This document shows positions 1,536 to 25,384 of a DNA stretch of 64,000 nucleotides, one piece after another. The notes under the pieces were generated by a model, which was not told the DNA's origin, did not search any database, and was given only the letters and a program-made list of their open reading frames with translations. Made by a program: the position numbers and the translations under genes. Positions within the stretch are counted from its first letter, which is position 1. Every line of letters starts with the position of its first letter. Location: positions 291,996 through 355,995 of the forward strand of contig AP026679.1 of assembly GCA_025999155.1 (NCBI GenBank), written 5' to 3'. The DNA comes from Candidatus Dojkabacteria bacterium (GTDB taxonomy: Bacteria > Patescibacteriota > Dojkabacteria > JAOAGR01).

Positions 1536-1581
1536 ATCTGATAACTAGAAAGTATAGTTAAAAACGGTTGAAAAATAAAAT

Positions 1582-2130: not shown

Positions 2131-2160
2131 AATCTCGAGTATGTACATGATGTGTTAGGA

Positions 2161-2751
2161 TTACTCCCCCACCTCGAATCTGACAAATCGTCTTATCCTG
2201 ATTGCTTCGCCCAATTTTCCACTAACAGATTTAAGCAAATCCTCGATTGTTTGCGTACCATCTTTAAAAAATACTTGTTTCAAAAGGCAGTACTGTGCCG
2301 CATAATTTTTCATCTTTGAATCGATAATATTTGTTTTTACCTGCTCAGGTTTATCTGCAAAATTAGGATCGTTCATGACCTCTCTTTCAAACTCCTGCCT
2401 AATCGATGCAGGAATATCAACTTCATCGATATACAGAGGCGACATAGCACAGACTTGCATGGCTATATCCTTCCCTAACTGATTAAATTCCTCAGTTTTT
2501 GCGACAAAGTCAGTCTCGCAATTTATCTCAACTAAAACGCCAATTTTATTATTTGAGTGTATATAACTCGCTATTATACCTTGTTTAGTCTCCTTATCTG
2601 ATCTCTTTTCTGCCTTTGCCATACCTTTTTTACGTAAGTAAGCTCTAGCTGCCTCTAAATCACTCTTAGCAATAACTAATGCCTCCTTTATATCAGCCAA
2701 ACTAGCACCGGTTTCAGATCTTAATTGTTTTATTAATTCTATATTTGACAT
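2161..2751 (-). CDS. tsf: Elongation factor Ts (short ~196-aa form)
   Basis: IKQLRSETGA, EINCETDFVAK, IRRFVRFEVGE. Confidence 0.97.
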   Translation of the reverse strand: MSNIELIKQLRSETGASLADIKEALVIAKSDLEAARAYLRKKGMAKAEKRSDKETKQGIIASYIHSNNKIGVLVEINCETDFVAKTEEFNQLGKDIAMQVCAMSPLYIDEVDIPASIRQEFEREVMNDPNFADKPEQVKTNIIDSKMKNYAAQYCLLKQVFFKDGTQTIEDLLKSVSGKLGEAIRIRRFVRFEVGE

Positions 2752-2782
2752 AGCTTCATGATAATACGGATTTAAATAAATT

Positions 2783-3682
2783 TTACCCCACTATCTTTTT
2801 GGCCTGCTCGCGAGATACACGAACAACTCTTGGTTGCCCTTTTCCTTGATCGGTACCAGCCGCAAGGTTTCTTAATTTCTTCTGCTCAAGCATCTTAGCC
2901 ATGTTTTGAATAGCTGCCTCTAATTCTGCCTGATCAATCTCCACATATTCTACACCTTTACCACCATTTCCAAGAAGTACTGTATCCCCCAACCTATTTA
3001 AAATCAAATCGATAGAACTAATAGAATCATCATTAGCAGGAATCACATGTGTGATCATATCTGTAGATGAATTCGTATCCACCACAGCAATAACAGGAAT
3101 ATTCATTTTATAAGCTTCACGAATAGCTATCCTAGATTTTTTAGCATCAACTACAATAAGACAGGCAGGCCTTTTATTGAAACTTTTTAACCCTCCATAT
3201 AAACTATCCAAACGTTTAAGCTCGGCAAACATTTTCAATAATTCTTTTTTCGTTCTATTTTCTATGCCCTCTTTAAATGCTCTAATATAATCATTGAGTT
3301 TCTTGATAGATTTTCTTGTCACCATGTAATTTGTGAGTAGTCCTCCAGGCCATCTGTTGATAACAAAGTGCGATTTGGTTCTAATAGCAACATTTTTCAC
3401 AATATCTTGTGCTTGAGGTTTCGTACCTACAAAAATAATTTCGCCTTTGGACGCATAATGATATGCCGCCTCAATAGCCTCATTGAGCTTTCGAATAGTT
3501 TTCACCAGATCTATGATATGGATCCCGTCCCGATGGGCATATATATATTCGCGCATGGAAGGGTGCCATCTTTGAGTTTTATGCCCAAAATGCACGCCAG
3601 CCTTTAACAATAATTCAATAGACTCATCACTCTCTTCGAGTAACGGTAATACCACTTTTTGTTTATTGTTTTCCTCGTTCAT
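2783..3682 (-). CDS. rpsB: 30S ribosomal protein S2 with N- and C-terminal extensions
   Basis: LLKAGVHFGH, RWPGGLLTN, VDTN, PANDDS. Confidence 0.97.
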   Translation of the reverse strand: MNEENNKQKVVLPLLEESDESIELLLKAGVHFGHKTQRWHPSMREYIYAHRDGIHIIDLVKTIRKLNEAIEAAYHYASKGEIIFVGTKPQAQDIVKNVAIRTKSHFVINRWPGGLLTNYMVTRKSIKKLNDYIRAFKEGIENRTKKELLKMFAELKRLDSLYGGLKSFNKRPACLIVVDAKKSRIAIREAYKMNIPVIAVVDTNSSTDMITHVIPANDDSISSIDLILNRLGDTVLLGNGGKGVEYVEIDQAELEAAIQNMAKMLEQKKLRNLAAGTDQGKGQPRVVRVSREQAKKIVG

Positions 3683-3748
3683 AAGTCCTAATTTACAGAC
3701 CTCCCCGGTAAACGCCGCAAAGCAACGCTTAGGACAAAACCGGGTGCT
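3683..3748 (-). promoter_or_regulatory. Putative rpsB (S2) leader RNA
   Basis: GC-rich 5' UTR; CCCGGU/ACCGGG stem followed by GAGG; internal GUCCUAA complementary to UUAGGAC just before the AUG. Confidence 0.5.
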
Positions 3749-3828
3749 AGGTTAGTATATATGCAAACTACATTTGCCTCCGCAATTTTATCACGAGTCT
3801 TATATTTCGCAAACGTTTTTAAAACACT

Positions 3829-4269
3829 CTACTTTTTTTCCCACCAGAAAATGGACAAAGTTGTATGAATCAAAGCTCCTACGGAAGACTGAATCAAAAT
3901 ACTACTCTCAATGTTAAAACCATTAAACGTTATTATAACGATAAAATTAAAAATGTAATTCACCAAATATAACACAAACTTATTGCCACGAAACCTTACA
4001 TACAACAAATAAAAAAAATACAATGAAATAACCAATACAAGGGACGATAATCCGAGTAAACCCTTATTATACCAATCATAGCAAAGACCTGCTAAAACAA
4101 AAATAACTAAAAAACTACTCTCCGATCTAATACTTAGTATGTAGTTCAGCAATAAAGCAGATAAAATTAATAAATTCTTCCAGAATGCCAATTCTCCCAG
4201 ACCCAAATCCAACAAAAATAATCCTATAAATAACGAAAAAATACCAACATGTATATATATTTTACTCAT
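3829..4269 (-). CDS. mreD: MreD-like integral membrane protein
   Basis: Hydrophobic multi-TM protein overlapping the 3' end of mreC; GLCYD motif resembles the MreD G.l.D motif. Confidence 0.6.
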   Translation of the reverse strand: MSKIYIHVGIFSLFIGLFLLDLGLGELAFWKNLLILSALLLNYILSIRSESSFLVIFVLAGLCYDWYNKGLLGLSSLVLVISLYFFYLLYVRFRGNKFVLYLVNYIFNFIVIITFNGFNIESSILIQSSVGALIHTTLSIFWWEKK

Positions 4270-5086
4270 ATCTTAAATAAACCATAGTTATAGATGTTAA
4301 ATCTAATGTTGGTACAATAACGAGCTCTTTAAACCCTGACTCTACATCATCCCGTACAGCCTTTACTTTACCTATTATGAGCCCTGGAGGCACCTCAACC
4401 ACATCATTTGTTGTTACCCAAATATCACCTTTTGGGATATCAACATCCTTTGGGACATTACGAATAAGAATATCACTTGTGTCTCTTTTACTGACAAATC
4501 CCTTGATGGAAGGATTTGAAATACTTTGCACAGGTATACTAAAAGGAATAGCTTTCGAATATAAAGGAGAAACCACAGCAGTGCTGCTTTCCACATCTGT
4601 GATAAAACCGAAAAGTGTCACCCTATCAAGATAAACAGGATCCCACTTCTCCACTATGAAATCGTGTGGTATCAGAATTTTTACCTTTGGGCTTAAGGAA
4701 TATAAATCTTGTATTCCAAAAACATCAACAGCCACCAATTTAGGAGCCGTTGGACTAATAATATTATATTTCTGTGAAATATGTTCGATTTGTTTTTTCA
4801 GTTTTTCGTTCTCAACAAGAATTTGTTCATACTCGGAGATCTGTCTTTTTAATTCTAAATTCTCCCTTGCTAGAAAAGGACGATTCATCAACTCATCCCA
4901 TACTAACTGCACATATATACCATTATTTCTAATCAGAATTACAAAAGGTATCAGGATCTGATCTAATTTAGAGTACAATACGCTATGTAAACCTAAAATA
5001 TCAATCCCAAAAATCATACCTATAACAACAAAAGCAGCTAAATATTTCCTAAAATCCGTTTTTGATTGTATAATTTCCGGATTCAT
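4262..5086 (-). CDS. mreC: Rod shape-determining protein MreC
   Basis: N-terminal TM, coiled coil with ENLELK/ENEKLK, GDIWVT...PPGLIIGKV; follows mreB. Confidence 0.88.
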   Translation of the reverse strand: MNPEIIQSKTDFRKYLAAFVVIGMIFGIDILGLHSVLYSKLDQILIPFVILIRNNGIYVQLVWDELMNRPFLARENLELKRQISEYEQILVENEKLKKQIEHISQKYNIISPTAPKLVAVDVFGIQDLYSLSPKVKILIPHDFIVEKWDPVYLDRVTLFGFITDVESSTAVVSPLYSKAIPFSIPVQSISNPSIKGFVSKRDTSDILIRNVPKDVDIPKGDIWVTTNDVVEVPPGLIIGKVKAVRDDVESGFKELVIVPTLDLTSITMVYLRYE

Positions 5087-5095
5087 CGATGCATT

Positions 5096-6148
5096 TTAGT
5101 AGTTACCATAATTCTGTTTTACTTTGGCAAGTAAATCAATATCTTCAAGCAACATCTGTGTACCTTTGACAACACATTCGATTGGGTTATCTCCTATTAT
5201 AAACTTCATTTTTAGTTTATCCTCAAAAAGATCTTTAATACCTCTAATCAAAGCTCCACCACCAGCAACAACAATCCCATTTACACTCAAGTCGGCAAGT
5301 ATTTCCGGAGGAGCTTCTTCCAATGCATCCGAAATTGCAGAAATAATTTTACTTAAAGAAGGCATGATTGCTTCCCGAACCTCAATCGAAGATATTGATA
5401 AAGTTTTTGGCACACCTTGAATAAGATCACGTCCACTGACTTCCATATTAATTTCCTTTTTGAGCGGGTACGCAGAACCAATTTGTATCTTGATTTCTTC
5501 TGCAGTTCTTTCTCCAATCAGTAAATTATATTTATGACGTATATAGTGTACTATGTCTTGATCCATTTGATCGCCAGCAACAGGAATAGTCTTATCAACA
5601 ACAATACCACCTAAAGAAATAATGGCTATATCTGTAGTACCGCCGCCTATATCTATAATCATCGAACCTTCAGCTTCATTGACTGGTAAACCAGACCCAA
5701 TTGCTGCAGCCATAGGTTCTTCAATCACGAAAACTTCTCTTGCGCCTGCACTTCTAGCAGCATCGTATACAGCTTTGCGTCCAATTTCAGAGGCTGATGA
5801 TGGTACACCAATCACAGTTCGCGGAATCGGAATTTTTATAAATTTATCGGATTTTTGGTAAGCAAGGTTGATAAAGTATTGAATCATATCTCGTGTTGCT
5901 TCAAAATCGGAAATTACTCCGTCTCTCAAAGGTCTTACAGCGACAATATTTGCAGGAGTACGGCCTAACATTTTTTTTGCAGGAGTACCTACAGCAAGAA
6001 TTTCCTTTGTATTTTTATTAATTGCAACAACAGATGGTTCGGTAGCAATTAGACCTACACCAGCAATAGCCACCTTTGTATTAGCAGTGCCAAGATCAAT
6101 ACCAATATCATCAGTCACTAACCGCCACAAATCATTTATTATATTCAT
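5096..6148 (-). CDS. mreB: Rod shape-determining protein MreB
   Basis: DIGIDLGTANT, EEPMAAAIG, DIGGGTTD, AGGGALI. Confidence 0.97.
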   Translation of the reverse strand: MNIINDLWRLVTDDIGIDLGTANTKVAIAGVGLIATEPSVVAINKNTKEILAVGTPAKKMLGRTPANIVAVRPLRDGVISDFEATRDMIQYFINLAYQKSDKFIKIPIPRTVIGVPSSASEIGRKAVYDAARSAGAREVFVIEEPMAAAIGSGLPVNEAEGSMIIDIGGGTTDIAIISLGGIVVDKTIPVAGDQMDQDIVHYIRHKYNLLIGERTAEEIKIQIGSAYPLKKEINMEVSGRDLIQGVPKTLSISSIEVREAIMPSLSKIISAISDALEEAPPEILADLSVNGIVVAGGGALIRGIKDLFEDKLKMKFIIGDNPIECVVKGTQMLLEDIDLLAKVKQNYGNY

Positions 6149-6230
6149 ATCTAGAAGTATAACACTTTAGATGATCTATAGAATCAGAGATGGTGAAAAC
6201 AGATTGACCAAAAGTACGGCTCGCCAAACT

Positions 6231-6503
6231 TTATTCAACTGGTATGGGCCTCACGAGTTCGATTTTACCCATATTATTTCTAAAGTAAGTTTTATACTCT
6301 TTCATCGTCATTTTAATCTTACCAAAAGGAGTCTTTACTGTACGAAGATTTAACCTCTGTACTTTGAGCTTTTTTACTCCATGTAATCCATGTGGACCTC
6401 TAGGAGCAAAAGCACGTGTCCCGGATCGCGACTTACCCGACTTATGTCGACCCGACCTCTGAATATTAGATTTTTTACCACTTATATCACTAACTCTAGC
6501 CAT
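6231..6503 (-). CDS. rpmB: 50S ribosomal protein bL28 (Cys-free form)
   Basis: MARVSDISGKK start, very basic, K.QRLNLR motif. Confidence 0.75.
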   Translation of the reverse strand: MARVSDISGKKSNIQRSGRHKSGKSRSGTRAFAPRGPHGLHGVKKLKVQRLNLRTVKTPFGKIKMTMKEYKTYFRNNMGKIELVRPIPVE

Positions 6504-6617
6504 AAAAGTACAACAAAATGTTAAACGCTACCAATGATAATACAAAATTACAATTTGTGCAAAAACTTTATAATTTTGAGTTGATTACAAATTTTAAAAA
6601 ATATAACCTTTAGACGT

Positions 6618-7850
6618 ATGAAGATATATTTAGACACCGTAAATGAATTTAAATCTCTGCATATACAAAAAGATACTCCACTTGCATTGGTTTTGTTTCT
6701 TGTGAAAGTTGGTACTCGTTACGAAACTTCTGATGTATCTGGGATTGCACATTTTATAGAGCACATGATGTTTAAACAAACTCAGAAACGTTCTACATCC
6801 GATATAGCAATTGAAATTGAATCTTTAGGCAGCCAAACAAACGCATTTACATCCCATCAATATACCGGTTTTTTTATAAAAATGCTTGGTACAAAATTTG
6901 ACGAATCTTTTGAGATTCTAGCGGATATCTTTCAAAACGGTAAGTTCGATAAGAATGATTTAGATATAGAACGTGGTAATATAATCGAAGAAATCAAACT
7001 CACACAAGATACCCCATCAGATCTAGTATGGGATTATGCGCAATCTAATATTTTCCCTAATAATACATTAGGGTGGCCTATTTTAGGTACTGAAGACTCT
7101 GTAAACAAGATTAATCAAGGTGATATTTTAAAATTTTTAGAACAGAAATATCTACAAGATGATATTCTGATAGTGTCTGTTGGTGATTTTGATCATGATA
7201 GAGTAAAAGACAACATCACAAAACACCTACGTCCTCGTAAACCAGGCCGATTAGAATTTGAGCCAGCCGAATTCAAACCAAAATCTAAGATTAATTTTCA
7301 TCACAAAGAATCATGTAATCAGGCGCATGTAGTGATTTCTTTTCCAGGAGTGAAAGATACCGATGAGGATTTTTTTAAATATGAAATTTTAGCCGAAATT
7401 CTTGGTGGTGGTATGGGATCGATTTTATTTTTATTGCTAAGAGAACAACTAGGAGTAGCTTATTATGTAGGTGCATTGCATCCAAGTTATCAAGATGTTG
7501 GAACTTTGCAAATTTATTTCGGAACAAATACAGATAAAACCTCCATGGTAATACAGGAAGTCTTCAAAACTTTAGAAGATATTAAAACCAAAGGAGTATC
7601 TAAACGAGATTTAGAACGCGCCCAAAATTATTATTTCTCGCAAATTACCATGGCCCAAGAGAACATTTTATTCTTAGGACGCCACTACGGTCTAGATTAT
7701 CTACTACATGGCAAAATAGATACTATCGAAGACATAAAGCGGAAAATTTATTCAATTACCGAAGACGATATCAAAAATTTAGCTAAAAAGGTGTTTAGTG
7801 ATCATTTCAACATCACATATATTGCGAATTCAGATTTAATCAAGATTTAA
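6618..7850 (+). CDS. M16 family zinc peptidase (pitrilysin-like)
   Basis: GIAHFIEHMMFK (HxxEH), NAFTS, ILGGGMGS. Confidence 0.93.
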   Translation: MKIYLDTVNEFKSLHIQKDTPLALVLFLVKVGTRYETSDVSGIAHFIEHMMFKQTQKRSTSDIAIEIESLGSQTNAFTSHQYTGFFIKMLGTKFDESFEILADIFQNGKFDKNDLDIERGNIIEEIKLTQDTPSDLVWDYAQSNIFPNNTLGWPILGTEDSVNKINQGDILKFLEQKYLQDDILIVSVGDFDHDRVKDNITKHLRPRKPGRLEFEPAEFKPKSKINFHHKESCNQAHVVISFPGVKDTDEDFFKYEILAEILGGGMGSILFLLLREQLGVAYYVGALHPSYQDVGTLQIYFGTNTDKTSMVIQEVFKTLEDIKTKGVSKRDLERAQNYYFSQITMAQENILFLGRHYGLDYLLHGKIDTIEDIKRKIYSITEDDIKNLAKKVFSDHFNITYIANSDLIKI

Positions 7851-7885
7851 GATAAGATATGAGAATTTTATAACGTATTTACGTT

Positions 7886-8395
7886 TTACTGGAAACTAAA
7901 AAACAAATCTTGATTGAATATTTCTCTGGGTAGAAAGCCAGCTTGAGTCTCTAAAACATACTGAACTGGTACATCAGCCGAATAAGTAGGACAAACAGCG
8001 TCTATCTCTCCACAAGGTTGCGCGTTTGCTGCAACATGGACAAATTTTTTATTTGCATCAAAAAATATAATGTCGAGTGGAATGTACGTGTTTTTCATCC
8101 AAAAACTTTGATTAGCCTCGTACGGAAATACAAATAGCATTCCATCAATATTTTCTAAATTACGCCTAAACATAAGACCTTGAGATCTTTCATGTACTTC
8201 GTCTGCTATTTCTACATTAAGAATACGAATAAAATTAGTATTCTGATGCTGAATAATTATTTTAGTACTACTAGAATAGTTAGTAGAAGAATTAAAACCT
8301 ACAGACTCGTTTATCAAATAAATCACACTCAAACACACAAAAATTGATATAATCAGAAAAAGGTGAATTATTTTGAAAATTAGTTTATTATTCAT
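7886..8395 (-). CDS. DUF192 family protein with N-terminal TM anchor
   Basis: VEIAD...RSQGLMFR...GMLFVF...FWMKNTYIPLDIIF...YVLE. Confidence 0.92.
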   Translation of the reverse strand: MNNKLIFKIIHLFLIISIFVCLSVIYLINESVGFNSSTNYSSSTKIIIQHQNTNFIRILNVEIADEVHERSQGLMFRRNLENIDGMLFVFPYEANQSFWMKNTYIPLDIIFFDANKKFVHVAANAQPCGEIDAVCPTYSADVPVQYVLETQAGFLPREIFNQDLFFSFQ

Positions 8396-8524
8396 ATGTT
8401 CAAATTATTCATATGTTCAAATTTTACTTCATTATTTAAACAATTAAAAAACTCTTAAAGACAGGAATTATCAATCAGTGTGAAATATTGACTTTTAAAT
8501 CGATATTTTATATAACGAATTGTT

Positions 8525-9043
8525 ATGGGTTTATTTAGAAACAATCCTGGAGATCAAAATCCTATTGAAATAAGGTTTCATGATGCTGTAAAAGAAATAA
8601 TGGGCAAACCGTCTCCTGGTTTTGAATGGGGACGATTTGATATACCGGTTCCAGGCGCCAAATTTTCTATACACGCTCACTTACTAGTACCAGTAACCAA
8701 TAAAACCCTTGAGCTAGTAACAGCAGGGTCTACTCTGATGGCTCTGCTAACGAACGAAGATATATCAAACATTGTGGAAACAAAAACAAACCTTCTGATC
8801 CCATCACGCAAATGTATAAAAGTACGATTGGGGGATGCAAATGGGATAATAGTCAACCTTCCATCAAAGTTATGGGTAAAATATCTTCCAGGATATGCTT
8901 TGTTTGCTGAAATAAACCCTACGCCTGGTAACCAAAACCTGATAGCCCCTCTTATTGTAAGGCCTATGAATGAAAATAAGCCGTTTATGGGTATGTATCC
9001 TTATACTTGGAGCAAGGGGTTTCCGAGACTTTTCCGTCGTTAA
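8525..9043 (+). CDS. Hypothetical protein
   Basis: 172-aa ORF with ATG preceded by TTGACT...TATAAC; no recognisable motif. Confidence 0.65.
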   Translation: MGLFRNNPGDQNPIEIRFHDAVKEIMGKPSPGFEWGRFDIPVPGAKFSIHAHLLVPVTNKTLELVTAGSTLMALLTNEDISNIVETKTNLLIPSRKCIKVRLGDANGIIVNLPSKLWVKYLPGYALFAEINPTPGNQNLIAPLIVRPMNENKPFMGMYPYTWSKGFPRLFRR

Positions 9044-9163
9044 AATTGATCCGGAGGAGACCGAACGATGTGCCTGATATCGTGTGAATTCTAATTATCT
9101 CTAACACCAAATAACTCCCGATCTGCGTCATCAGTGCCCGGTGTACTTTTTTAATCTACATGC

Positions 9164-9465
9164 TTATCGGTATACCATCTCTGCTACAACAAATCGAAAT
9201 ACAAACAGCATACCATCGGTATTTACTAGATCTTGTCAGAACATAAGACCTTGAGATTTTTCGTGTGCCTCATCAGCTGTTTCGAAATTTAAATCCACAG
9301 AATAGTTATTATTTTTGTGAAGACTTTTCGCATCATGTGACTCATTTTTATCAGAAGAAAAATCAAATTTTAGCGACTTATATGAAATACCAACACGGTA
9401 AAACATACAATAACTACAAGGATCAATAGTATATACAAAGAGTTTATAAAGATTTTAGTCTTCAT
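9164..9465 (-). pseudogene. Degenerate second copy of the DUF192 gene
   Basis: Translates to MKTKIFINSLYILLILVVIVCFTVLVFHISR* then, after a frameshift, ETADEAHEKSQGLMF*QDLVNTDGMLFVF, matching 7886-8395 (EIADEVHERSQGLMFRRNLENIDGMLFVF). Confidence 0.85.
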
Positions 9466-9564
9466 GTACATTGTATTTTATAGAAATATTAGTTTCAAAA
9501 CATAGTCCTAAATGAAGCCCACATATATTTCTAATTCAAAAAAATGATATAATACCGCACACGT

Positions 9565-10021
9565 ATGATAAGAACCGACACACCGGTAGGTTGCGAGGAC
9601 CCAGATGACGTAAAAAAAAATAGGTAAAATACAAAGTTTGTTTGCTAAAGTCGTGGAAATGACGAAACAAGACTATAGAGGTCGTCTATCATGGTTTTGT
9701 CGTCAGTATGAGAACGGCAGTTCTTTATACATACCGATAAAAACGGACCTTAATAATATCACTCTTGGATCAAGTTCATTAGGGTATATTTTAGTAGGCG
9801 TCAATTACAAAATGCCTACAACATTTAGGCAAATAAAATCTGAATATGTCGACGACGAATCTCTCTTTACACATTTGAATCATTCTTCTATTCAAGTTAA
9901 AACAGGCGAAAGTTTATATTTAGAATTCAAACAGGGAAAGTATCAGTCCCTTCTAGCTTCACTGTCTATCGAACACCTTCAAAAGGAGGTGAAAAGGAGT
10001 ATATTTATACAAGTAATCTAG
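9565..10021 (+). pseudogene. Hypothetical protein frameshifted at an A9 tract
   Basis: ATG 9565 (MIRTDTPVGCEDPDDVKK) joins ORF 9638-10021 in frame if the A9 run at 9612-9620 were A8. Confidence 0.55.
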
Positions 10022-10439
10022 AAGTACTAAAGGTACCTATTTTTAGAAGAATTGAACCTAGATTTAATTGGCTCATGAGAGATCCTAAAGATCCTTTAGC
10101 CTATGGTTTAGGCACGGTTGTGTACACTCTCCAAGGAAAGTAGAAAAATTTAAGTTTTGACTCTGACAGCTAAAGTACTGCTAAAAACAAAGATAACAAA
10201 GTGTCAACTACTGTTGCGAATACCTCCAATGATAAGTCGCATGTAAATAGAAGAAACACAGACAAGACACAATGCTCACAATATACATCTGTTGATCCTC
10301 TCTACAGCTCTACATACAACACTATATTTACAAGCCTTTCTACTTATTCAATAAACGTTTAATAAACTCAGCTGATGTTATATTTCACTATTCTTTCGTC
10401 TTGATACAATTCAATTAAATCGTACAGGTACGATTATTG

Positions 10440-12044
10440 TTACTCTGATCTTAAAGCATTTACTACATTGTTTCTAGAGGAAATTAGCACTGGAAATAAT
10501 CCTGCTAAAAATCCCATAGACATCAATATAATAAAGAATACTGTTACTTCTACAATCGGGAACCCTACAAAAACAAATAAAGGTTTACTTACTGAAACCT
10601 GAGACGAACCAGCTGCAAGCAAATAATAAATAGTATCACCAAAAAGTAAAGATAAAACTATATTAATTGCAACTGCTAGCACCAGCCCAGCAATAAAACC
10701 CCCTGCCAAAACGATAAATATATAAGACATAAATATTTTTACAATGTCAATTTTTTGAGCACCTATAGCTCGAAAAATTCCTATTTCTTTTTTACTATCT
10801 GCTAGTATCTTGAAGACATTCATATTTACAAAAGCTATTGCAACTATTAGCAGTAATGAGGTTACACATATAACTAAATATTGTATGGAATTCAATATAT
10901 CTTCAAAGTACTCTTTTACACTTTTTAAAGGATAAACATAATAGTGAAAACTCAAGTTATCTATAGTTTCATTCGAGAAACCGTTATCTGAAGCTGTAAA
11001 AGATTCCTCATTTGAAGCAGGCGGAGCAAAACATCTCACACCATCACTGTCACACCTTCCGTTAGGGCTCAATACATTTTTGTTTTGTAAATTTGTCATA
11101 TCATCAACAAAAACATCTCGTTTTTTTGCACTATCAAACTCAACAATGTAAACAATATCTTGTTTTTTAGCTTGACTAAATAAGGTACCTATTTGTGTAT
11201 TCACTGATAGAGCCCATTCTGGGATAATAGCACCTACCGTACCCCACGTACTATAATTAAGTCCAAAAAGATCATTACCAATTTGAAATGGTTGTATGCT
11301 GCCAGCATAACCAACAATTAAACCCTGAAAAGATAAAACTTCAGAACCATTTAAACCGACAGAAACTGTAACTTCCTGCCCTATATATTTATAAAGCTTT
11401 TTATGTATATCACCCAACTTTTCACTGAACCTTGTATCAAATGATTCGAAACTTCTATCTTGCATGAAAAAATTTTGCAGCTCATTATTCAACAACATAG
11501 CATCAGCGTATGCTGGATTAAGAAGAATGGGAACTCTACCATTATATAGATTCTCAAACGAATAACCTCCCAAAACCGACTCTTTACTCAAATAAGGGTC
11601 AATAGATACGATACTATAATTATTTTCCACTGACGATTGTCTATTGTTATTTAAATCACCTTTCCCTTCAAAATCTTTCAGCATAACGGTTGGACCAACA
11701 AGTACAGTCTTTTTGTATATACCCTTAATTTTATACTTATCACCATACATAGACTTAAATTCTGGTACACTTGGAATAGATAACGGTATATGAATGTTTT
11801 CAGCAAGATCTGTACTTTTTATCTCCCCTACTACCGACATAGACCAATTAATTGCTGCAAAATACGTCTGATATCGATCAGGGTATGCTTCCCACAGTAT
11901 ACTGCGAATTGAACTAACTCCTATTAGAAATATCAAAATCGATACAACACCAAATGCAAACATAACCATAGAAAGAACACTGCGCACCTTGCGAGCTTTA
12001 AACTTAATCAAACCCAGCCTTAATGAGTCTTGTATCGTTATCAT
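10440..12044 (-). CDS. ABC transporter permease, MacB/FtsX family
   Basis: RKVRSVLS N-terminal TM, large extracytoplasmic domain, KKEIGIFRAIGA, C-terminal VVNALRSE. Confidence 0.9.
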   Translation of the reverse strand: MITIQDSLRLGLIKFKARKVRSVLSMVMFAFGVVSILIFLIGVSSIRSILWEAYPDRYQTYFAAINWSMSVVGEIKSTDLAENIHIPLSIPSVPEFKSMYGDKYKIKGIYKKTVLVGPTVMLKDFEGKGDLNNNRQSSVENNYSIVSIDPYLSKESVLGGYSFENLYNGRVPILLNPAYADAMLLNNELQNFFMQDRSFESFDTRFSEKLGDIHKKLYKYIGQEVTVSVGLNGSEVLSFQGLIVGYAGSIQPFQIGNDLFGLNYSTWGTVGAIIPEWALSVNTQIGTLFSQAKKQDIVYIVEFDSAKKRDVFVDDMTNLQNKNVLSPNGRCDSDGVRCFAPPASNEESFTASDNGFSNETIDNLSFHYYVYPLKSVKEYFEDILNSIQYLVICVTSLLLIVAIAFVNMNVFKILADSKKEIGIFRAIGAQKIDIVKIFMSYIFIVLAGGFIAGLVLAVAINIVLSLLFGDTIYYLLAAGSSQVSVSKPLFVFVGFPIVEVTVFFIILMSMGFLAGLFPVLISSRNNVVNALRSE

Positions 12045-12082
12045 AATATTAGTCCAATCTTTCTTAACACTTTTATTCTTAA

Positions 12083-12886
12083 CTATACGATTTTTCCATC
12101 TGATATTTCAATAACCCTATGAGCGTGTTTTGCTACATTCAAATCATGGGTAACAATAACCATAGTGGTATGCAAATTCGCATTGATTTGTTTAAGCAAA
12201 TTAATAATCTCAGTACCAGTATTCATATCGAGATTTCCAGTTGGTTCATCAGCTAAAATGATTTTTGGGCTGTTTACAAGGGCCCTCGCTATAGCAACTC
12301 TCTGCACTTGTCCCCCACTTAATTGGTTAGGTAAGTACGAAATACGAGCAGACAAACCAACTTGCTCTAATACTCGACGAGCTTTCTGCGAGCGTACAGC
12401 ACGAGATTCACCTCTAAATACTAAAGGAATTTCCACATTTTCTTGTGCTGTTAAATAAGGTTGCAGATAGAAAAATTGAAAAACAAAACCAATGGTCTGG
12501 TTCCTAAACACTGATAATTCGTTATCATTGAGACCACCTAAATTACGACCATCTACAATCACATCTCCCGAATCTGGTTGATCTAAACCCCCTATCAGAT
12601 TGAGCAGTGTACTTTTCCCACTACCGCTTGGTCCTACCAAAGCAACAATTTCACCAGTATAAATATTTAGATTTATGTTTTGTAGCACGACGACTTCCTG
12701 CTTGATCTTGCCATATTTTTTGTAAACAGATCTCAACTCTATGATCTTGGAAACATTATTTTGCTCCTGATCAACTGTATCAGAAAATTTTGGTTCTACT
12801 ACATGATTGGAATTACACCGACCGAGTTGGTCTGAATCAGACGAGAACATATATCCGATTTTAGTATAGTCATATGGGTATATCAA
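12083..12886 (-). CDS. ABC transporter ATP-binding protein, MacB/LolD family (true start may be later)
   Basis: Walker A GPSGSGKS, LSGGQVQRVAIARAL, LADEPTGNLD, VTHD. Confidence 0.95.
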   Translation of the reverse strand: MIYPYDYTKIGYMFSSDSDQLGRCNSNHVVEPKFSDTVDQEQNNVSKIIELRSVYKKYGKIKQEVVVLQNINLNIYTGEIVALVGPSGSGKSTLLNLIGGLDQPDSGDVIVDGRNLGGLNDNELSVFRNQTIGFVFQFFYLQPYLTAQENVEIPLVFRGESRAVRSQKARRVLEQVGLSARISYLPNQLSGGQVQRVAIARALVNSPKIILADEPTGNLDMNTGTEIINLLKQINANLHTTMVIVTHDLNVAKHAHRVIEISDGKIV

Positions 12887-13010: not shown

Positions 13011-13084
13011 TGGCTTCTCCGCTAGGATTCGAACCTAGACCTGGTGATTAACAGTCACCCACGCTACCATTACGCCACAGAGAA
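13011..13084 (-). tRNA. tRNA-Asn(GTT), 74 nt, CCA encoded
   Basis: TTCTCTG/CGGAGAA acceptor, GGTGA-CTGTTAA-TCACC anticodon arm, CTAGG-TTCGAAT-CCTAG T arm, G73-CCA. Confidence 0.92.
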
Positions 13085-13086
13085 AT

Positions 13087-13118
13087 AAAAAATCTCCCTC
13101 GATTACGAGGGAGATTTT
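13087..13118 (-). terminator. Intrinsic terminator (attenuator 3:4 helix) ending 2 nt before tRNA-Asn
   Basis: Minus strand AAAAUCUCCCUCG-UAAU-CGAGGGAGA-UUUUUU; perfect 9-bp GC-rich stem plus U6. Confidence 0.85.
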
Positions 13119-13143
13119 CTTTAAACCCAAATAACAATCCCCC

Positions 13144-13194
13144 TCAGACCGAGGAATTAAGATTATTATTTGAGTTTAGATTGAATAACACCAT
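13144..13194 (-). CDS. Asn-rich leader peptide MVLFNLNSNNNLNSSV (putative attenuator peptide)
   Basis: ATG GTG TTA TTC AAT CTA AAC TCA AAT AAT AAT CTT AAT TCC TCG GTC TGA; 6 of 16 codons are Asn; lies between a promoter and the terminator upstream of tRNA-Asn. Confidence 0.75.
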   Translation of the reverse strand: MVLFNLNSNNNLNSSV

Positions 13195-13230
13195 TTTTTG
13201 ATTTATGAATTTATTTATATTTACACCAAC

Positions 13231-13259
13231 AGTTTATATCATCCTTACAACATAGTCAA
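13231..13259 (-). promoter_or_regulatory. Sigma70-type promoter for the leader peptide/tRNA-Asn unit
   Basis: TTGACT-N17-TAAACT on the minus strand. Confidence 0.65.
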
Positions 13260-13378
13260 GTATTGAATTAGGAAAAAAGTAAAGCAATAACTAAAGGTAT
13301 TGGGATTGTCTGAGAAGAAATTAATTTTAGAATAAAAACAAATAAAGACAAAACAGACACATAATGTCATCTATTTAT

Positions 13379-13802
13379 TGGTGGAGATGGCGGGAATCGA
13401 ACCCGCGTCCGAAAAGTTCTTAAACAAACATCTACAAGCTTAGTAGGTTTCATATGTAGCTTTTGTCTTTAAAACCTACAAAATGACAAAGGCTTTTGGC
13501 CTTTAACTTGATCAAGACTGCCGGCCCGCAACCTTGACGGTCAACTTAGAAGTAAAGATCAATAGTAAGCTACGTTGACCTGCTCACTTACTACTCTACC
13601 CGAACAACTACTCTTCGTAGTGTCCGGAAGTTAGGCAGCTAATTGCACAACTTGTTGTGGGGTAATTGCACTAATTATAGATCTACCTAACTCGCTTAAT
13701 TTATTTTCTGCACTTTTTGATGAGCGATATTCTAGTACGTGTCATCGCCAAACACGACTTGCAGTTTGTTCAAGAACATCCCGTCAAGTCCAATACATCC
13801 CC
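13379..13802 (-). ncRNA. ssrA: tmRNA; tag reading frame 13631-13711 encodes AENKLSELGRSIISAITPQQVVQLAA*
   Basis: 5' GGGGATGTATTGGACTTGAC; 3' GACGCGGGTTCGATTCCCGCCATCTCCACCA; tag ends in LAA-TAA. Confidence 0.95.
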
Positions 13803-14824: not shown

Positions 14825-16060
14825 CTATACCAAATACCTATATAGCATGTCATTACTATCAATTTTGAAGTATCTGAATCCTGATTTATTTAATCCTTCA
14901 ATAAAAGAATTATAATCTTCCTTATTATGTAATTCGATTCCTACAAGTGCTGGTCCAAATTCTTTATTTGTTTTTTTAAGATATTCAAATCTTACTATAT
15001 CAAAGTTGACACCTACAGTATCCAAAAACAATTTTAACTGGCCTGGTTTTTGAGCAAACTCAATGATGAAATAATGCTTTAAACCTTCGTAAATCAGACT
15101 TCTCTCCATGATTTCAGGATAGCGAGAGATATCATTATTTCCCCCACTGATTATACACACGACATTTTTACCCTGTGTATCACTTTCCACTGAATCTAAA
15201 GCAGCAACAGCCAATGCCCCAGCAGGCTCAGCAATTATCCCTTCTTCTTGGTACAACTCTATCATCGACGTACAGACCTTACCTTCAGGGACAACGAAAA
15301 CTTTGTCCACTTTTTCTTTTATAATATTAAATGTAATAGTACCTATTTTTTTTATGGCAGCACCATCAATAAATGTGTCAATATTAGTTAATTCTACCGG
15401 ATGACCCACATTAAGAGCTTCTACAGCTTTTGGAGCCCCCGCTGGATCGACTCCAAAAACCTTAATCCCCGAAATAACAGACTTAGCATAAGTAGAAATA
15501 CCAGAAATCAACCCTCCACCGCCTATTGGAACAATGATGATATCGGTATCAGGTAAATCCTCCAAAATTTCAATACCCACAGTCCCTTGGCCAGCAATAG
15601 TCCTTTCGTCATCGAATGGGTGTACATAAACTAGACCATCATCTTCAGCTCTTCTTTTTGAAGCTTGAAATGCCTCGTCAAAAGTTCTGCCAACTAATTC
15701 AATGTGTACAAATTGTCCTCCAAACTTTTTAACTTTATTAATCTTTTGGACAGGAGTAACCTCCGGCATGTAGACAATTCCTCGTATCCCCAAAGATGCA
15801 CATGCATAAGCAAAACCTTGAGCATGATTTCCGGCACTAGCACAAATAACTCCCCTACTTTTTTCTTCTTCTGAGAGTGAACTGATAAGATTATAAGCAC
15901 CACGAATTTTATACGAACGCACAGTTTGTAAATCCTCTCTTTTAAGATAAATTTTGGCTTTGTATTTATTTGATAACCTTGCTGAATATTGCAGCGGGGC
16001 ATGATTCACTACATTTTTTATGTTTTGATAGGCTTTTTGAATGGTCTCTGCGGTCAACAT
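14825..16060 (-). CDS. ilvA: Threonine ammonia-lyase IlvA, short (Bacillus-type) form
   Basis: KREDLQTVRSYKIRGAYN PLP-lysine motif, ASAGNHAQG, PIGGGGLISG, SGGNND, C-terminal regulatory domain. Confidence 0.95.
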   Translation of the reverse strand: MLTAETIQKAYQNIKNVVNHAPLQYSARLSNKYKAKIYLKREDLQTVRSYKIRGAYNLISSLSEEEKSRGVICASAGNHAQGFAYACASLGIRGIVYMPEVTPVQKINKVKKFGGQFVHIELVGRTFDEAFQASKRRAEDDGLVYVHPFDDERTIAGQGTVGIEILEDLPDTDIIIVPIGGGGLISGISTYAKSVISGIKVFGVDPAGAPKAVEALNVGHPVELTNIDTFIDGAAIKKIGTITFNIIKEKVDKVFVVPEGKVCTSMIELYQEEGIIAEPAGALAVAALDSVESDTQGKNVVCIISGGNNDISRYPEIMERSLIYEGLKHYFIIEFAQKPGQLKLFLDTVGVNFDIVRFEYLKKTNKEFGPALVGIELHNKEDYNSFIEGLNKSGFRYFKIDSNDMLYRYLV

Positions 16061-16066
16061 AAAAAT

Positions 16067-16447
16067 TTATTTATAAGCTATACATGCAATTTCTATTTTT
16101 GCATTTTTTGGTAGGCTCGACACTACCACGGTAAATCTTGCAGGTTTTACACCTGCATCAAAATATTGTGCATACACTTCATTAAACAAAACAAAATCAT
16201 CTAGATTAACTAGAAACACCTGCATTTGCAGAACTTTATCAAGTGCAGAACCGGCAGCCTCTAAAATATTTCGTATATTTGTAATGACTTGCTGAGTTTG
16301 TAATTGGATATCATCACTGATCAGATCACCCGTTTGGTAATTTATACCAATCTGCCCGGAACAGAAAATCAGATTTCCGTACTCTACAGCTTGTGAATAG
16401 GGCCCTATTGCTTGAGGCGCCAATTGAGTTTTAATTTCCTTTTTCAT
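16067..16447 (-). CDS. ridA: RidA/YjgF enamine deaminase
   Basis: APQAIGPYSQAV, SGQIG, FNEVYAQYF, PAR, LPKNAKIEI. Confidence 0.95.
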   Translation of the reverse strand: MKKEIKTQLAPQAIGPYSQAVEYGNLIFCSGQIGINYQTGDLISDDIQLQTQQVITNIRNILEAAGSALDKVLQMQVFLVNLDDFVLFNEVYAQYFDAGVKPARFTVVVSSLPKNAKIEIACIAYK

Positions 16448-20500: not shown

Positions 20501-20576
20501 TGGAGCTAGAAGCGGGACTTGAACCCGCGACCCCTTCCTTACCATGGAAGCGCTCTACCAACTGAGCTATTCCAGC
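20501..20576 (-). tRNA. tRNA-Thr(GGT) copy 1
   Basis: GCTGGAATAGCTCAGTTGGTAGAGC, CTTCC-ATGGTAA-GGAAG, GGTTCAAGTCC, CCA. Confidence 0.95.
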
Positions 20577-20699
20577 ACCACACTGCGCATAAGCTACACC
20601 ACAAACTTCGCATAGACTATCCTCAACAAAACGAAGGAATACAAGACACGTACACCATCTAAAACCCTCACAATGGAATCACCTACCACTAAAAAACCT

Positions 20700-21337
20700 T
20701 TACTCGACACTAAACTCCTCTATCGTAAAGCCCTCTTCTGTATTACCAACCATTGTAATAACCACTACATTATTACGATAATTGAACGCTATTAATTTCA
20801 TCGTGTTAACGCCAGTATTGTAAGGAGATTCCCCATCAATCTTAAATAACACAAACTGCAATAACAAATCAGCTGAAGACTTACTTTCTAAATAATCACA
20901 AAAATCACTTATCTTTTTTGCCTGTTCTATAAACTCTGCTTCTGTAGTATCCTGCCTAAACTTTTCAAGAGTCCTAGTTCGATAAGTATTCGATAATTCA
21001 GAATCAGATTTTTCGCAGACTGTCTTATCCAACTGCGATACAAAAACTTTTTTTGTTCATCCGCAAAGGCTAACTCATTAGCAACTAGCAAAAACGAACA
21101 AACAGTACATACACAACAAACTATGACCAAAACAATACAAGATATTAAAACAAAAGACTTCATCTTACTTCCAGATTTACTCTGAGGTACACCATACACA
21201 GCCTGGGGTGCCGAACCTGACACCGAGCCCACAGCAGGTGGTGCATTAACACGCATAGCCGGAGGATTGGTGGGAGAATATTGCGGTAGATTATGATTAA
21301 CAGAGACTACGTTTTGCGGATTTACTTGAGTGTTCAT
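20700..21337 (-). pseudogene. Family B membrane protein copy 1, split by a one-base frameshift in an A7 tract
   Basis: ORFs 20927-21343 and 20700-21032 together align to intact 23322-23981; A8 at 21048-21054 would give EQKKVFVSQLDKTVC. Confidence 0.8.
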
Positions 21338-21475
21338 AAACAACTATTCTTAAAAATTAAAAGACCCAAGCCATTCTAAAACTACATACCACATTCGTCA
21401 ACGTCTACAAGAAAAACCAAACACAACCCTCCCTTAATTTGAACTAACTATTTATTGCTAAGTTACAAATTTAAT

Positions 21476-22768
21476 TTATCTATTCACATAATACACAAAA
21501 GTAGAAGCCCTATTCATAACATCATTCTGTTTAGAAGAATCCTCAAAATCGTCTACATCAGAAAGTTTATCAATATACCTAAACTCAATACGACCATCAG
21601 GGTAAGCAACAGGACTAAAATCTCCAAAATTGAATATAAAAATTTCCTTTCCAACAGTGTCCTTGCCAAGTACGGTCTCTACACTGCCATCATCAAGATT
21701 AATCTTTAGAACCGACTTAAAAAAACCCAGTCGTACGAGAGATTCTCCATAAAGAATAACATAATTCCTCCCTCTATAAACAACCGAACCAAAGGTCATA
21801 ACAAGATTGGTATCATCGCCGTTAATCCGGTACAGACTAGGACCTACAGGACCAACACCCAAGCCGTTGAAATCTGGTGCAGCAATAAAATAATTATCAC
21901 CAAACTCAATAATACGCTGGAAAGATAAAGATCTCTGACCATCATTTATTTTATAAGTTTTTCCGTTTATCAAATGATAGCCGGCTACACTAACCCATGG
22001 ACCTTGATCCCCAAGTTGACAATCTAAAGGATTTTTCTCCAATATCGTATAAGCTAGGTCATTATTCTTATTGAGAGCGATGGAAGCTACAAAGTTCTCA
22101 GGTTCCGGAGCTGTATATATAACACTTACGTTCTTATTTGTATCCATCATCTTCACTTTATTTGGCTCATTAGTATCAACATAGTACAATCGCGTACCAT
22201 CCATACTGACCACAGGATGAGCAGGCAATCTACGCAGACAAGTATCATAATCGGAATAGTCCACAAAACCGTAAGGACGATCCATGACTAGTTCATTACC
22301 CAATCTGTACTCCAACTTAGAAGACTCACTATCGTAATGAACATTAAATTTATCCGAAGCAATAGGTACATTGGAATACAAAACTTTTGATACGTAATAA
22401 AAATAATATGAAGACATTACGAAATAATCCTTGCTTTCAGATGAATCAGATTTACTCGTACCAGACGAATCAGATGGACTTGTATTAGGCATACTTTGAC
22501 TAGAATTATTTGAAGAAAGCCCGAACGGAATCTTACTAGAATAAACCAAAGATACTAAAACAACAGAAACACACAGAACTCCCAGAGCAATTACTAAAAT
22601 ACTAATAACTAAAAATTGCTTGTTTTGAAGCATACCAGAGTCATTACTCACATTTAAGTGTGAAGTACTTGTACCTCTATCTGCTTGATTTTCCTCAGAG
22701 GTATTTAGTCCGCTTGAATTTAACATGATTGATTCTATCAAATTACATGACTCTAATCTAGACATCAA
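21476..22768 (-). CDS. Single-TM surface protein, family A copy 2
   Basis: Paralog of 17695 and 24122; Ser-rich linker after the TM. Confidence 0.85.
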   Translation of the reverse strand: MMSRLESCNLIESIMLNSSGLNTSEENQADRGTSTSHLNVSNDSGMLQNKQFLVISILVIALGVLCVSVVLVSLVYSSKIPFGLSSNNSSQSMPNTSPSDSSGTSKSDSSESKDYFVMSSYYFYYVSKVLYSNVPIASDKFNVHYDSESSKLEYRLGNELVMDRPYGFVDYSDYDTCLRRLPAHPVVSMDGTRLYYVDTNEPNKVKMMDTNKNVSVIYTAPEPENFVASIALNKNNDLAYTILEKNPLDCQLGDQGPWVSVAGYHLINGKTYKINDGQRSLSFQRIIEFGDNYFIAAPDFNGLGVGPVGPSLYRINGDDTNLVMTFGSVVYRGRNYVILYGESLVRLGFFKSVLKINLDDGSVETVLGKDTVGKEIFIFNFGDFSPVAYPDGRIEFRYIDKLSDVDDFEDSSKQNDVMNRASTFVYYVNR

Positions 22769-22856
22769 TTACATCAACAATAAAGAAAACACAAGATCTA
22801 CAGGCCCTATTATCGATACAGGATAATTATAAACCGACATCAAAAAACCAATATAA

Positions 22857-23017
22857 TTATTTCTTTTCAACAAAATCTACATGCTTACATACATTAGGGT
22901 CACATTTTCTTTCTCAGAGCTAACTTACATCGGCTTTAGGGCTTTTATAAGTATAATATACGTAACCAAAAGCAGATACTAACCTGATTAAGTTTTTTTA
23001 CCTTTATTACAAGACAT
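22857..23017 (-). pseudogene. rpmG pseudogene (copy 2)
   Basis: MSCNKGKKT* / NLIRLVSAFGYVYYTYKSPKADVS* / RKCDPNVCKHVDFVEKK*; frameshifts and stops relative to 20062-20229. Confidence 0.85.
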
Positions 23018-23149
23018 CTGTCGAAAGTAGGTATGACCTAAGCACGAAACATGAAAATAAAAGAATAAAAAACACAGATAACGCAATAAAAACAAACAAA
23101 CCTAGCGATCGAAAGAAAAATATGAAAAAGGATCATGCACTACCTAAAA

Positions 23150-23225
<76 letters not shown>

Positions 23226-23321
23226 ACCGTATTGCGCACAAATAACGTCACATAAACTATCCCCGACAAAACAACAAAATATAAACATAAGGACCTGTCC
23301 ACCATCCAAAACTCTTACAAC

Positions 23322-23975
23322 CTATTTTGATGCAACTTCTGCTATAACAAAATTCTTTATTTTAAAACCTTCTTGTGTATTACCAACCATTACAATACTC
23401 ACTCCATCACCATTGTAATTAGATACCACTAATGCCATTTTGTTCACACCAGTGTCATACGGACTCACCCCCTCAATTCCCAAAATTATACCTTGAGAAT
23501 ATAAATCAATCGCCGATTTACCTTCTAAATGATTACAAATACCACTGATCTTTTTAGCTTGTTTTACAAAATCTGCTTCTGTAGTACTTTGCCTAAACTC
23601 TTCCAGAGTCTTAGTTCTATAAACCCTCGATAGATCAGAGTCAGATTTTTCGCAGACTGTCTTATCCAACTCCGACACTATAATCTTTTTATGTTGTTCT
23701 ACAGCCGTAACATTACCATTAACCAGAACAGATAGAAAAACAGTACACACACAACAAACTACAAACAAAACAATACCAGATATTAAAAAACAGGACTTGT
23801 TTTTACTTCCAGCTTTATTCTGAGGTACACCATACACAGCCTGGGGTGCCGAACCTGACACCGACCCCACAGTAGGCTGTACATTGACACCCATAGCCGA
23901 AGGACCGGCGGGATAATGCTGTGGCAGATTATGATTAACAGAGACTACGTTTTGCGGATTTACTTGAGTGTTCAT
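23322..23975 (-). CDS. Family B membrane protein copy 2 (Pro/Gln-rich N-terminus, Cys-rich TM, extracytoplasmic domain)
   Basis: MNTQVNPQ...VVCCVCTV TM...LDKTVCEKSDSDL...GNTQEGFKI. Confidence 0.85.
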   Translation of the reverse strand: MNTQVNPQNVVSVNHNLPQHYPAGPSAMGVNVQPTVGSVSGSAPQAVYGVPQNKAGSKNKSCFLISGIVLFVVCCVCTVFLSVLVNGNVTAVEQHKKIIVSELDKTVCEKSDSDLSRVYRTKTLEEFRQSTTEADFVKQAKKISGICNHLEGKSAIDLYSQGIILGIEGVSPYDTGVNKMALVVSNYNGDGVSIVMVGNTQEGFKIKNFVIAEVASK

Positions 23976-24121
23976 AAACAACTATTCTTAAAAATTAAAA
24001 GACCCAAGCCATTCTAAAACTACATTCAATACTCGTCAATATGCATAAGAAAAATTACAAACAACGCGATCTCCATATAATTTTAACTAACTTATTGCAA
24101 AGTTAACAATTAAATAAACAT

Positions 24122-25384
24122 TTATCTATCAATATCATACACAAAAGTAGAAGCTGTATTCCGAGCCTCATCCAGTCTAGAAGGATCTTCAGAATCCTCA
24201 ACATCATCTATAGAAATTTTATCAGTATACTTAAACTCGATACGACCATCAGAGTAAACAACGGGACCAAAATCAATAAAATCAAATATGAGAATCTCCT
24301 TTCCAACAGTATCTGGACCTAGTAAGGTCTCTATACTACCGTCATCAAGATTCACCTTTAAAACAGACTTAGCAACACCCGAAAGAAAATATTGTCCGTA
24401 AAGAATAATATAATTACTTCCCCTATAAACCACTGGACCAAAAGTCATGACATGTTCGACATTAGCTTCGTTAATCCGGTATAAAATAGGGCCTACAGGA
24501 CTAAACTCTGCAGCAGCGATAAAGTAATTATCTCCGAAATCAATAATAACCTCATCAGACGCAGCAACAAACCTCTCACCATTATTTATTTTATACATGT
24601 TTCCATTTATTAAATGATAGCCAGTTACACCACCATCCGATTGACAAAATAATACAGGTCTTTTTTCAAATATTGTATAAGCTAAATCGTTATTCTTGTT
24701 GATAGCAATAGAAGCTATAAAATTCTCAGGTTCAGGGGTAGTATATATAACACTTACGTTCTTATTTGTATCCATCATTTTTACTTTATTAGGATCCTCA
24801 ATATCAACAAAGTATAACCGTGTACCATCCGTACTAGTCACAGGATAGGCAGGCAACCTCGGTCGACAACTATCATTTCCATTAAGTGTTAAATCATAAA
24901 AGCCGTAAGAACGATCCATGACTAGCTCACTACCCAACCTATATTCAAACTTAGAGGACCCACTATCATAATAAACATTAAACCTATCGGAATCTGGAAC
25001 ACCTCGAAGATAAAATAAAGAATTCGCATAATAAAAAGAATATGAAGGAGATAGGAAATAACCCCCACCTCCAGGTGAATCAGATGTACCATTACTAGAC
25101 ATCTCGTGATCATAATTGTTTGAAAAAACTCCTGGATGAATCTCACTAAAATAAGAATCGAAAACCCTCATAATAATATCTAAAGATACCAGAGTAATAT
25201 CACGACCATACATAAGTCCGACGGGACATAATACACTTAATAGAAAAACAACAGTTAAACAGTTACCTAAAAATTGCATCTTTTGAGGCAGACCATAGTC
25301 ACCATTCACATTTAAATGTGAAGTATTTGTACTTTTATCCTCTTGATTTTCCTTAGAAGTATTTTGATCCTCTGCAGTCAACAT
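24122..25384 (-). CDS. Single-TM surface protein, family A copy 3
   Basis: Paralog of 17695 and 21476. Confidence 0.85.
   Translation of the reverse strand: MLTAEDQNTSKENQEDKSTNTSHLNVNGDYGLPQKMQFLGNCLTVVFLLSVLCPVGLMYGRDITLVSLDIIMRVFDSYFSEIHPGVFSNNYDHEMSSNGTSDSPGGGGYFLSPSYSFYYANSLFYLRGVPDSDRFNVYYDSGSSKFEYRLGSELVMDRSYGFYDLTLNGNDSCRPRLPAYPVTSTDGTRLYFVDIEDPNKVKMMDTNKNVSVIYTTPEPENFIASIAINKNNDLAYTIFEKRPVLFCQSDGGVTGYHLINGNMYKINNGERFVAASDEVIIDFGDNYFIAAAEFSPVGPILYRINEANVEHVMTFGPVVYRGSNYIILYGQYFLSGVAKSVLKVNLDDGSIETLLGPDTVGKEILIFDFIDFGPVVYSDGRIEFKYTDKISIDDVEDSEDPSRLDEARNTASTFVYDIDR

Follow-up and report, generated by a model that had tools for sequence, protein, structure and literature searches.

Why should a tRNA-Asn gene of a Dojkabacteria genome begin two nucleotides after an intrinsic transcription terminator, and behind a short open reading frame crowded with asparagine codons? 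The locus lies on the minus strand of a 64,000-nucleotide stretch (hereafter the window), part of a genome that consists of one 738-kb contig, on which 46 tRNAs and a tmRNA are encoded. An earlier note on this DNA had read the arrangement as an attenuator gating the tRNA gene, and every feature it named was recovered on the minus strand, base for base, in sequence, tRNA and fold checks. Our comparative and in silico tests support that reading and refine it: the gated tRNA would be a spare isotype, and in relatives it often heads an operon of enzymes. We put at roughly 80% the probability that the element is a transcription attenuator with a leader peptide and trp/his geometry, which likely senses charged tRNA-Asn and gates the spare tRNA-Asn gene.

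The leader transcript is predicted to start near 13224. The promoter proposed for it, TTGACT-N17-TAAACT (13259-13231, minus), is present with the boxes and spacing that the earlier note gave, and would be of the sigma70 type; on score alone (9/12) the match is not above chance, being one among seven such sites where 4.9 are expected. An A-rich 5' UTR of about 30 nt (13224-13195) leads into the 16-codon leader ORF, MVLFNLNSNNNLNSSV* (13194-13144), with its six Asn at codons 5, 7, 9, 10, 11 and 13 and a run of three (NNN) at codons 9-11, as previously read. Taking the genome-wide Asn frequency of 6.0%, the probability of at least six Asn in 15 codons is 1.4 × 10−4. Segment 1, the Asn-coding arm (13178-13161), can pair over 18 bp with the 3' part (13139-13122) of segment 2 (13146-13122), the 5' part of which (13146-13136, beginning at the stop codon) can pair with segment 3 (13116-13106) to form an antiterminator. 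Segment 3 is common to this antiterminator and to the predicted intrinsic terminator made by segments 3 and 4 (13116-13087), with the stem UCUCCCUCG/CGAGGGAGA (13114-13093) followed by U6. The tRNA-Asn(GUU) gene (13084-13011, minus; Rfam 65.4 bits) starts 2 nt beyond the U tract, has a U1-A72 pair and encodes its CCA.

The earlier note had missed two features: the tmRNA upstream of the leader, and a second, leaderless tRNA-Asn(GTT) gene elsewhere in the genome. The tmRNA (13802-13379, minus) is outside the switch, ends 120 nt before the leader promoter and is followed by an AU-rich hairpin of −10 kcal/mol. Downstream of the tRNA lies an ABC transporter (12886-10440, minus), consisting of a LolD/MacB-like ATPase and an FtsX-type permease with profile matches below curated cut-offs. 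Co-regulation of the transporter with the leader is unlikely, because it has a promoter-like site of its own (TTGATA-N17-TAAAAT, 12886-12858; ATG at 12850) that is conserved in the syntenic contig L122 described below. The ATPase gene itself (12886-12850, minus) looks leaderless, with the −10 box 7 nt before the ATG and this spacing kept in L122. Elsewhere in the window, a tandem duplication of about 2.6 kb (20501-25384, minus) holds two near-identical tRNA-Thr(GGT) genes, each after a paralogous ORF pair, and a threonine dehydratase with a C-terminal regulatory domain adjoins a RidA-family gene (14825-16447, minus), which is unexpected for such a genome.

The second tRNA-Asn(GTT) gene (C1:696820-696895) has an ordinary sequence, and because this housekeeping copy is leaderless we regard the window copy as the spare one behind the leader. 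The window tRNA-Asn is divergent; compared with every other tRNA of the genome, it scores highest against tRNA-Gln(CTG), at 47, and then against tRNA-Asp and the other tRNA-Asn, at 42 each. Two tRNA-Gln(TTG) genes, in a viral and a metagenome contig (L087, L121), have an acceptor stem and D-arm of the same type as the window tRNA-Asn, hinting that the latter may have been recruited from a Gln-type body. The genome encodes a non-discriminating AspRS and GatB, both over cut-off, and an RNase P RNA; a gene search of the genome found no AsnA. The AsnRS gene is broken into frameshifted pieces (C1:603900-602598, minus; loci L320/L321). As asnS was intact in 5/5 family members tested, this break may be an assembly error, or a recent pseudogene.

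Folded as naked RNA, the leader (13224-13085) adopts a minimum-energy structure composed of helices 1:2 and 3:4 (z = −8.96), and 0/200 shuffled sequences folded as well. Helix 1:2, in which the earlier note had read both imperfect pairs as G-U on this strand only, formed with 18/18 pairs at −18.3 kcal/mol, against −10.1 kcal/mol on the opposite strand. Helices 2:3 and 3:4 likewise formed as drawn, at −16.0 kcal/mol (10 pairs, a terminal U-G being left uncounted by duplexfold) and −15.9 kcal/mol, respectively.

We modelled the switch by masking the RNA to 9, 12 or 15 nt beyond each A-site codon; in the main setting the terminator stem was complete and the U tract held in the polymerase. Under this setting the antiterminator of the window leader exceeded a probability of 0.9 only for A-site codons 7-11, 6-10 and 5-9 (at 9, 12 and 15 nt of cover), which is the Asn block, and the terminator had a probability of at least 0.96 with the ribosome absent or at the stop codon. 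When the 33 homologous leaders found in the survey below were folded to the terminator loop, segment 3 was captured upstream (antiterminator probability above 0.5) in 33/33 with a stalled ribosome and in 1/33 with the ribosome at the stop codon. If the U tract is left free to pair, the terminator wins at equilibrium despite the stall (0.85-1.0 in the window; above 0.5 in 18/33 leaders), so the modelled switch depends on the order of co-transcriptional folding. The trp and his attenuators are likewise held to need such an order. On this model the ribosome would stall on the Asn codons and termination would switch accordingly.

Among the closest relatives is a metagenome contig (L122) that is syntenic with the window at 76% identity over 1.4 kb. 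Its promoter, TTGAGT-N17-TAAAAT, keeps both boxes and the 17-nt spacing, and its 5' UTR has diverged. The two leader ORFs differ by four synonymous and two non-synonymous codon changes with all six Asn codons kept; helix 1:2 is kept, the terminator is kept through a compensatory G-C to A-U change, and the tRNA-Asn is identical to the window copy. A genome from another genus of the same family (G003) has a tRNA 92% identical to it, with a compensatory change in the T-stem, behind a leader with a GTG-start ORF (KSKVNNNFNPL*) and its own 2:3 and 3:4 helices. In two further genomes (G002 and G006) a related tRNA isotype lacks a leader and is immediately preceded by a promoter-like site. When the leader was used as a BLAST-type query against relatives, just tRNA or tmRNA parts were matched, because the leader is too diverged. 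The exact TGAGGG...CCCTC core shared by the window and G003 returned noise when used as a query in 401 genomes of the phylum and in viral contigs. A general leader pattern gave 26 viral matches, mostly gene-end terminators and none followed by tRNA-Asn.

The class was surveyed through the tRNA: a tRNA-Asn pattern matched 193/221 class genomes, many with two matches among the matches listed. Two-copy genomes were deliberately over-represented in the survey set, which comprised 114 tRNA-Asn genes of 74 genomes; 112 of these genes had at least 200 nt of upstream sequence. The detector was fixed as an ORF of 8-25 codons with at least three Asn in six codons, then a U-tailed hairpin. It was positive for 33/63 spare-type (type B) and 0/49 housekeeping-type (type A, starting UCC, UCU or UCG) genes, the types having been defined after the first leaders were seen. 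The 33 leader loci span 32 genomes (the window genome and 31 others), 24 genera and seven families; most named records with a homologous leader carry the label Dojkabacteria, Saccharibacteria or Patescibacteria, and the class surveyed is likely Dojkabacteria. Where both types were fetched from a genome, a leader was present in 22/36 and always on type B, and in 20/22 of those genomes the leaderless copy was the nearer to a single-copy reference tRNA. For the other 30/63 spare-type tRNAs, among them the closest isotype of G002 and of G006, a leader was not found within 200-420 nt upstream. Family f7, the largest with 100 genomes, most of them single-copy, contributed very few genes to the sample, with a leader in 0/4.

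Among 76 genes from other classes of the phylum there were two convincing leaders (L396, L399) and a third added by eye (L398), all on second tRNA-Asn copies, which makes 3/5 such copies looked at. Of the four detector matches outside the class, two were dropped by eye, L373 as the end of a protein gene and L440 for a helix 2:3 of only −2.9, and seven fetched loci outside the class had no callable tRNA-Asn. At six loci (L088, L098, L113, L166, L181 and L282) partial copies of the tRNA 5' end sit just upstream of the spare tRNA-Asn, between it and the terminator or promoter, suggesting insertion scars or repeated duplication.

The expectation that relatives would keep the ORF, the Asn run and the three helices was borne out at the 33 loci, each with changed sequence. 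Segments paired better with their own partners than with swapped ones (−11.2 v −8.0 kcal/mol for 1:2, −13.6 v −8.6 for 2:3 and −10.9 v −6.6 for 3:4; permutation p ≤ 1 × 10−4 for all three helices, kin not being independent), and the two sides of helix 2:3 comprised 33 and 31 distinct sequences among the 33 leaders. When 24 leaders were aligned with MAFFT, RNAalifold returned just four terminator pairs and neither 1:2 nor 2:3, because the helix registers slide; there is therefore no per-column covariation count for helices 1:2 and 2:3. At the level of sequence, these comparisons establish the anatomy of the element, its conservation and the identity of its target.

A start-codon-free pattern was also run across GTDB, giving 103 matches, followed by tRNA-Asn in 22 and by another tRNA in two. 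In the 21 tRNA-Asn matches with upstream sequence, many of which the class survey had also contained, an ATG occurred in the Asn frame in 19 and in the other two frames in none, compared with 19, 13 and 9 by frame in the 81 other matches. The 33 survey leaders have an ATG in the Asn frame in 30/33 and in neither other frame, a count that is partly circular. In 23/33 leaders just 5-9 nt separate a −10 box from the start codon, so leaderless translation is predicted for those 23; the window leader is an exception. Indirectly, the frame counts and the synonymous bias between the window and L122 ORFs suggest that the leader ORF may be translated.

The frame counts bear on another alternative, a plain constitutive terminator that ends run-on from the tmRNA or transcription from the leader promoter. 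The ORF would then be there by chance, and the tRNA would come from leaky termination or a promoter of its own. The terminator does dominate the naked RNA, and the tmRNA does lie upstream on the same strand; yet G003 and most homologues, where the tmRNA is not beside the leader, keep the ORF and helices. Together with the 19/0/0 frame result and a promoter scan that found no promoter-like site in the 2 nt between terminator and tRNA, this makes a plain terminator very improbable.

We examined what the leaders precede. A tRNA-Asn was present in 33/33 loci, and in 20/33 the next gene on the same strand was asnS, non-discriminating aspS or gatC/gatA. Sixteen of these 20 were assigned by NCBIfam (15 over cut-off, and one gatA best match below) and four by Pfam, as class II D/K/N synthetases. 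The next genes were unrelated in 12/33 loci, on the opposite strand in four of these, and the leader was intact; one locus stops at a contig edge. As the tRNA heads such an operon in 20/33 loci, the ancestral target was, on this gene order, probably the tRNA plus Asn-tRNA enzymes. In the window the tRNA stands alone, without asnS, aspS or gatCA following, and in this lineage it is likely the only Asn-related target left.

Two leaders have no tRNA between them and a protein gene. One (L263) directly precedes an Asp/Asn-type class II D/K/N synthetase, and the other, an Asn leader in a Bacteroidota record (L228, Flaviaesturariibacter), directly precedes a gene that we take to be asnB-like from its N-terminal motif. 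Because the targets across loci, these two included, are Asn-related, the element looks like a general Asn-tRNA sensor, most commonly in the order leader, spare tRNA, enzymes.

These gene orders could mean that the switch evolved for the enzyme operon, with the tRNA as a passenger and the window copy a relic of little effect. The 20 loci that run on into asnS, non-discriminating aspS or gatC/gatA would fit, as would the L263 leader before a synthetase without a tRNA and the leaderless isotypes of G002 and G006. However, the leader is intact at the 12 loci with unrelated next genes, and the window and L122 differ by a compensatory helix change with every Asn codon kept and the tRNA identical, and so we consider a relic unlikely.

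Target identity also bears on what is sensed. A leader that responded to general ribosome loading or coupling, with its AAY repeats serving as an AU-rich arm for helix 1:2, would account for the Asn run doubling as a pairing arm, for a modelled switch that flips at any stall at codons 6-10, and for such repeats in a genome of 34.5% GC. The AAY run, however, stays in one frame and uses both Asn codons (AAT 153, AAC 57 across leaders), and the targets are Asn-specific: tRNA-Asn, asnS, non-discriminating aspS, gatCA and the asnB-like gene of L228. A comparable leader was not found at the genome's other tRNAs, with one weak exception: run on all 46 tRNAs, the detector found the window copy and, among the other 45, one weak match at a tRNA-Pro. 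We think general sensing quite unlikely. When the whole genome was scanned for leader attenuators, whatever the amino acid, six matches came up, and among these only the Asn leader has strong helices together with a codon run and an ATG start.

We rejected a T-box riboswitch as the identity of the leader, as the 64-kb window has no match to Rfam RF00230 (stem I with specifier loop, antiterminator bulge). The genome's only T-box-like match (L456; C1:476592-476778, minus) lies elsewhere, before a TyrRS-like gene, and scores 59.3 bits, below the gathering score, with an E-value of 6 × 10−13. A T-box and a leader-peptide attenuator thus appear to coexist in one small genome.

The target of the Clostridium NT-box, studied by Saad et al. 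in 2012 and 2013, is reportedly aspS2-gatCAB. In the accessible text of PMC4574755, this T-box riboswitch of Clostridium acetobutylicum acts by antitermination in tRNA-dependent Asn-tRNA synthesis, and within that partial account it is the nearest functional analogue of the window leader, alike in transcription antitermination, in serving Asn-tRNA synthesis and in responding to tRNA charging. Unlike the window leader, which has no T-box match, a T-box recognises the uncharged tRNA itself and works without a ribosome.

Besides trp and his, classical attenuators are found at pheST, thr, leu and ilv. The leader-peptide mechanism of the E. coli trpL and Salmonella hisL type is summarised in the accessible part of bioRxiv 10.1101/834739, by which the window leader would qualify on its sequence as an attenuator of this type. 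In common with trpL and hisL it has cognate codons in tandem within a short ORF, the three helices 1:2, 2:3 and 3:4, an intrinsic terminator and targets that restore charged tRNA. It differs in the amino acid, Asn, and in having a spare-isotype tRNA as the first or only regulated gene; Asn leaders as a group differ further in occurring in Patescibacteria and in being, for most homologues, predicted leaderless. The same part of that preprint describes leaderless polycysteine short ORFs of mycobacteria that attenuate translation by hiding a Shine-Dalgarno sequence. They resemble the Asn leaders in their leaderless short ORF, homopolymeric run and indirect sensing of charged tRNA, as far as that account goes, whereas the window element has a terminator/antiterminator as its output and a non-coding tRNA, not the Shine-Dalgarno of a protein gene, as its target. 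We rejected a mycobacterial-type translational attenuator on these grounds: the gene behind the leader encodes a tRNA, and the structure in competition is a terminator.

RNA data came from four runs of one microbial-mat metatranscriptome sample in which the locus is present. One 159-nt mismatch-free contig spans 13126-12968, covering the terminator, the tRNA and 43 nt of trailer; it is a single record of depth 3 from 1/4 runs, and DNA origin is possible. The same runs cover housekeeping genes in 582-7120 and none of 7507-12500, and this patchy gene coverage means that the spanning contig fits RNA more than DNA. It hints, weakly, at a read-through precursor. The RNA contigs leave 13127-13363 uncovered. 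The deepest RNA coverage was over the tmRNA (13379-13802), with strain variants that include a 3-nt insertion near 13651.

The attenuator that we favour would work as follows. When Asn-tRNA is plentiful, the ribosome would reach the stop codon and cover segment 2; with no ribosome, helix 1:2 would form. Either way segment 2 would be occupied, 3:4 would form and transcription would stop near 13087. When Asn-tRNA is scarce, a ribosome stalled at N7-N11 would mask segment 1, so that segment 2 could form 2:3, RNA polymerase would read on into the tRNA, and RNase P would cut the spare tRNA out of the read-through transcript. The basal supply would come from the housekeeping tRNA-Asn, and in most relatives asnS, non-discriminating aspS or gatCA would be induced through the same switch as well. 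More tRNA cannot alone relieve a shortage of asparagine, and the benefit of a tRNA-only target is therefore not obvious; there would be one if tRNA-Asn itself were limiting, or if the spare isotype fed the AspRS/GatCAB route better. More tentatively, and at less than even odds, Dojkabacteria might hold two isotypes of one anticodon, one constitutive and the other behind a ribosome-stalling attenuator whose leader reads the same codon as the tRNA. The latter would then be a dedicated part of an Asn-tRNA rescue module, possibly as the preferred substrate of non-discriminating AspRS/GatCAB, so that the tRNA body switches with the enzymes when Asn-tRNA becomes scarce.

The earlier note knew of no described Asn leader peptide or tRNA-gene attenuator, and our search of the open literature found neither. 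What appears to be new here is a leader tied to the spare isotype in two-copy genomes and to asnS/aspS/gatCA operons. If the reading is right, an element of just 140 nt would add Asn to the amino acids sensed by the textbook attenuator, and to its targets a new class: a tRNA gene induced by shortage of its own charged form. It would also mean regulated, coupled transcription-translation in Patescibacteria, where few regulators are known, with most homologues acting from a leaderless message, and it offers a reason why many genomes of a streamlined class would hold two divergent tRNA-Asn genes.
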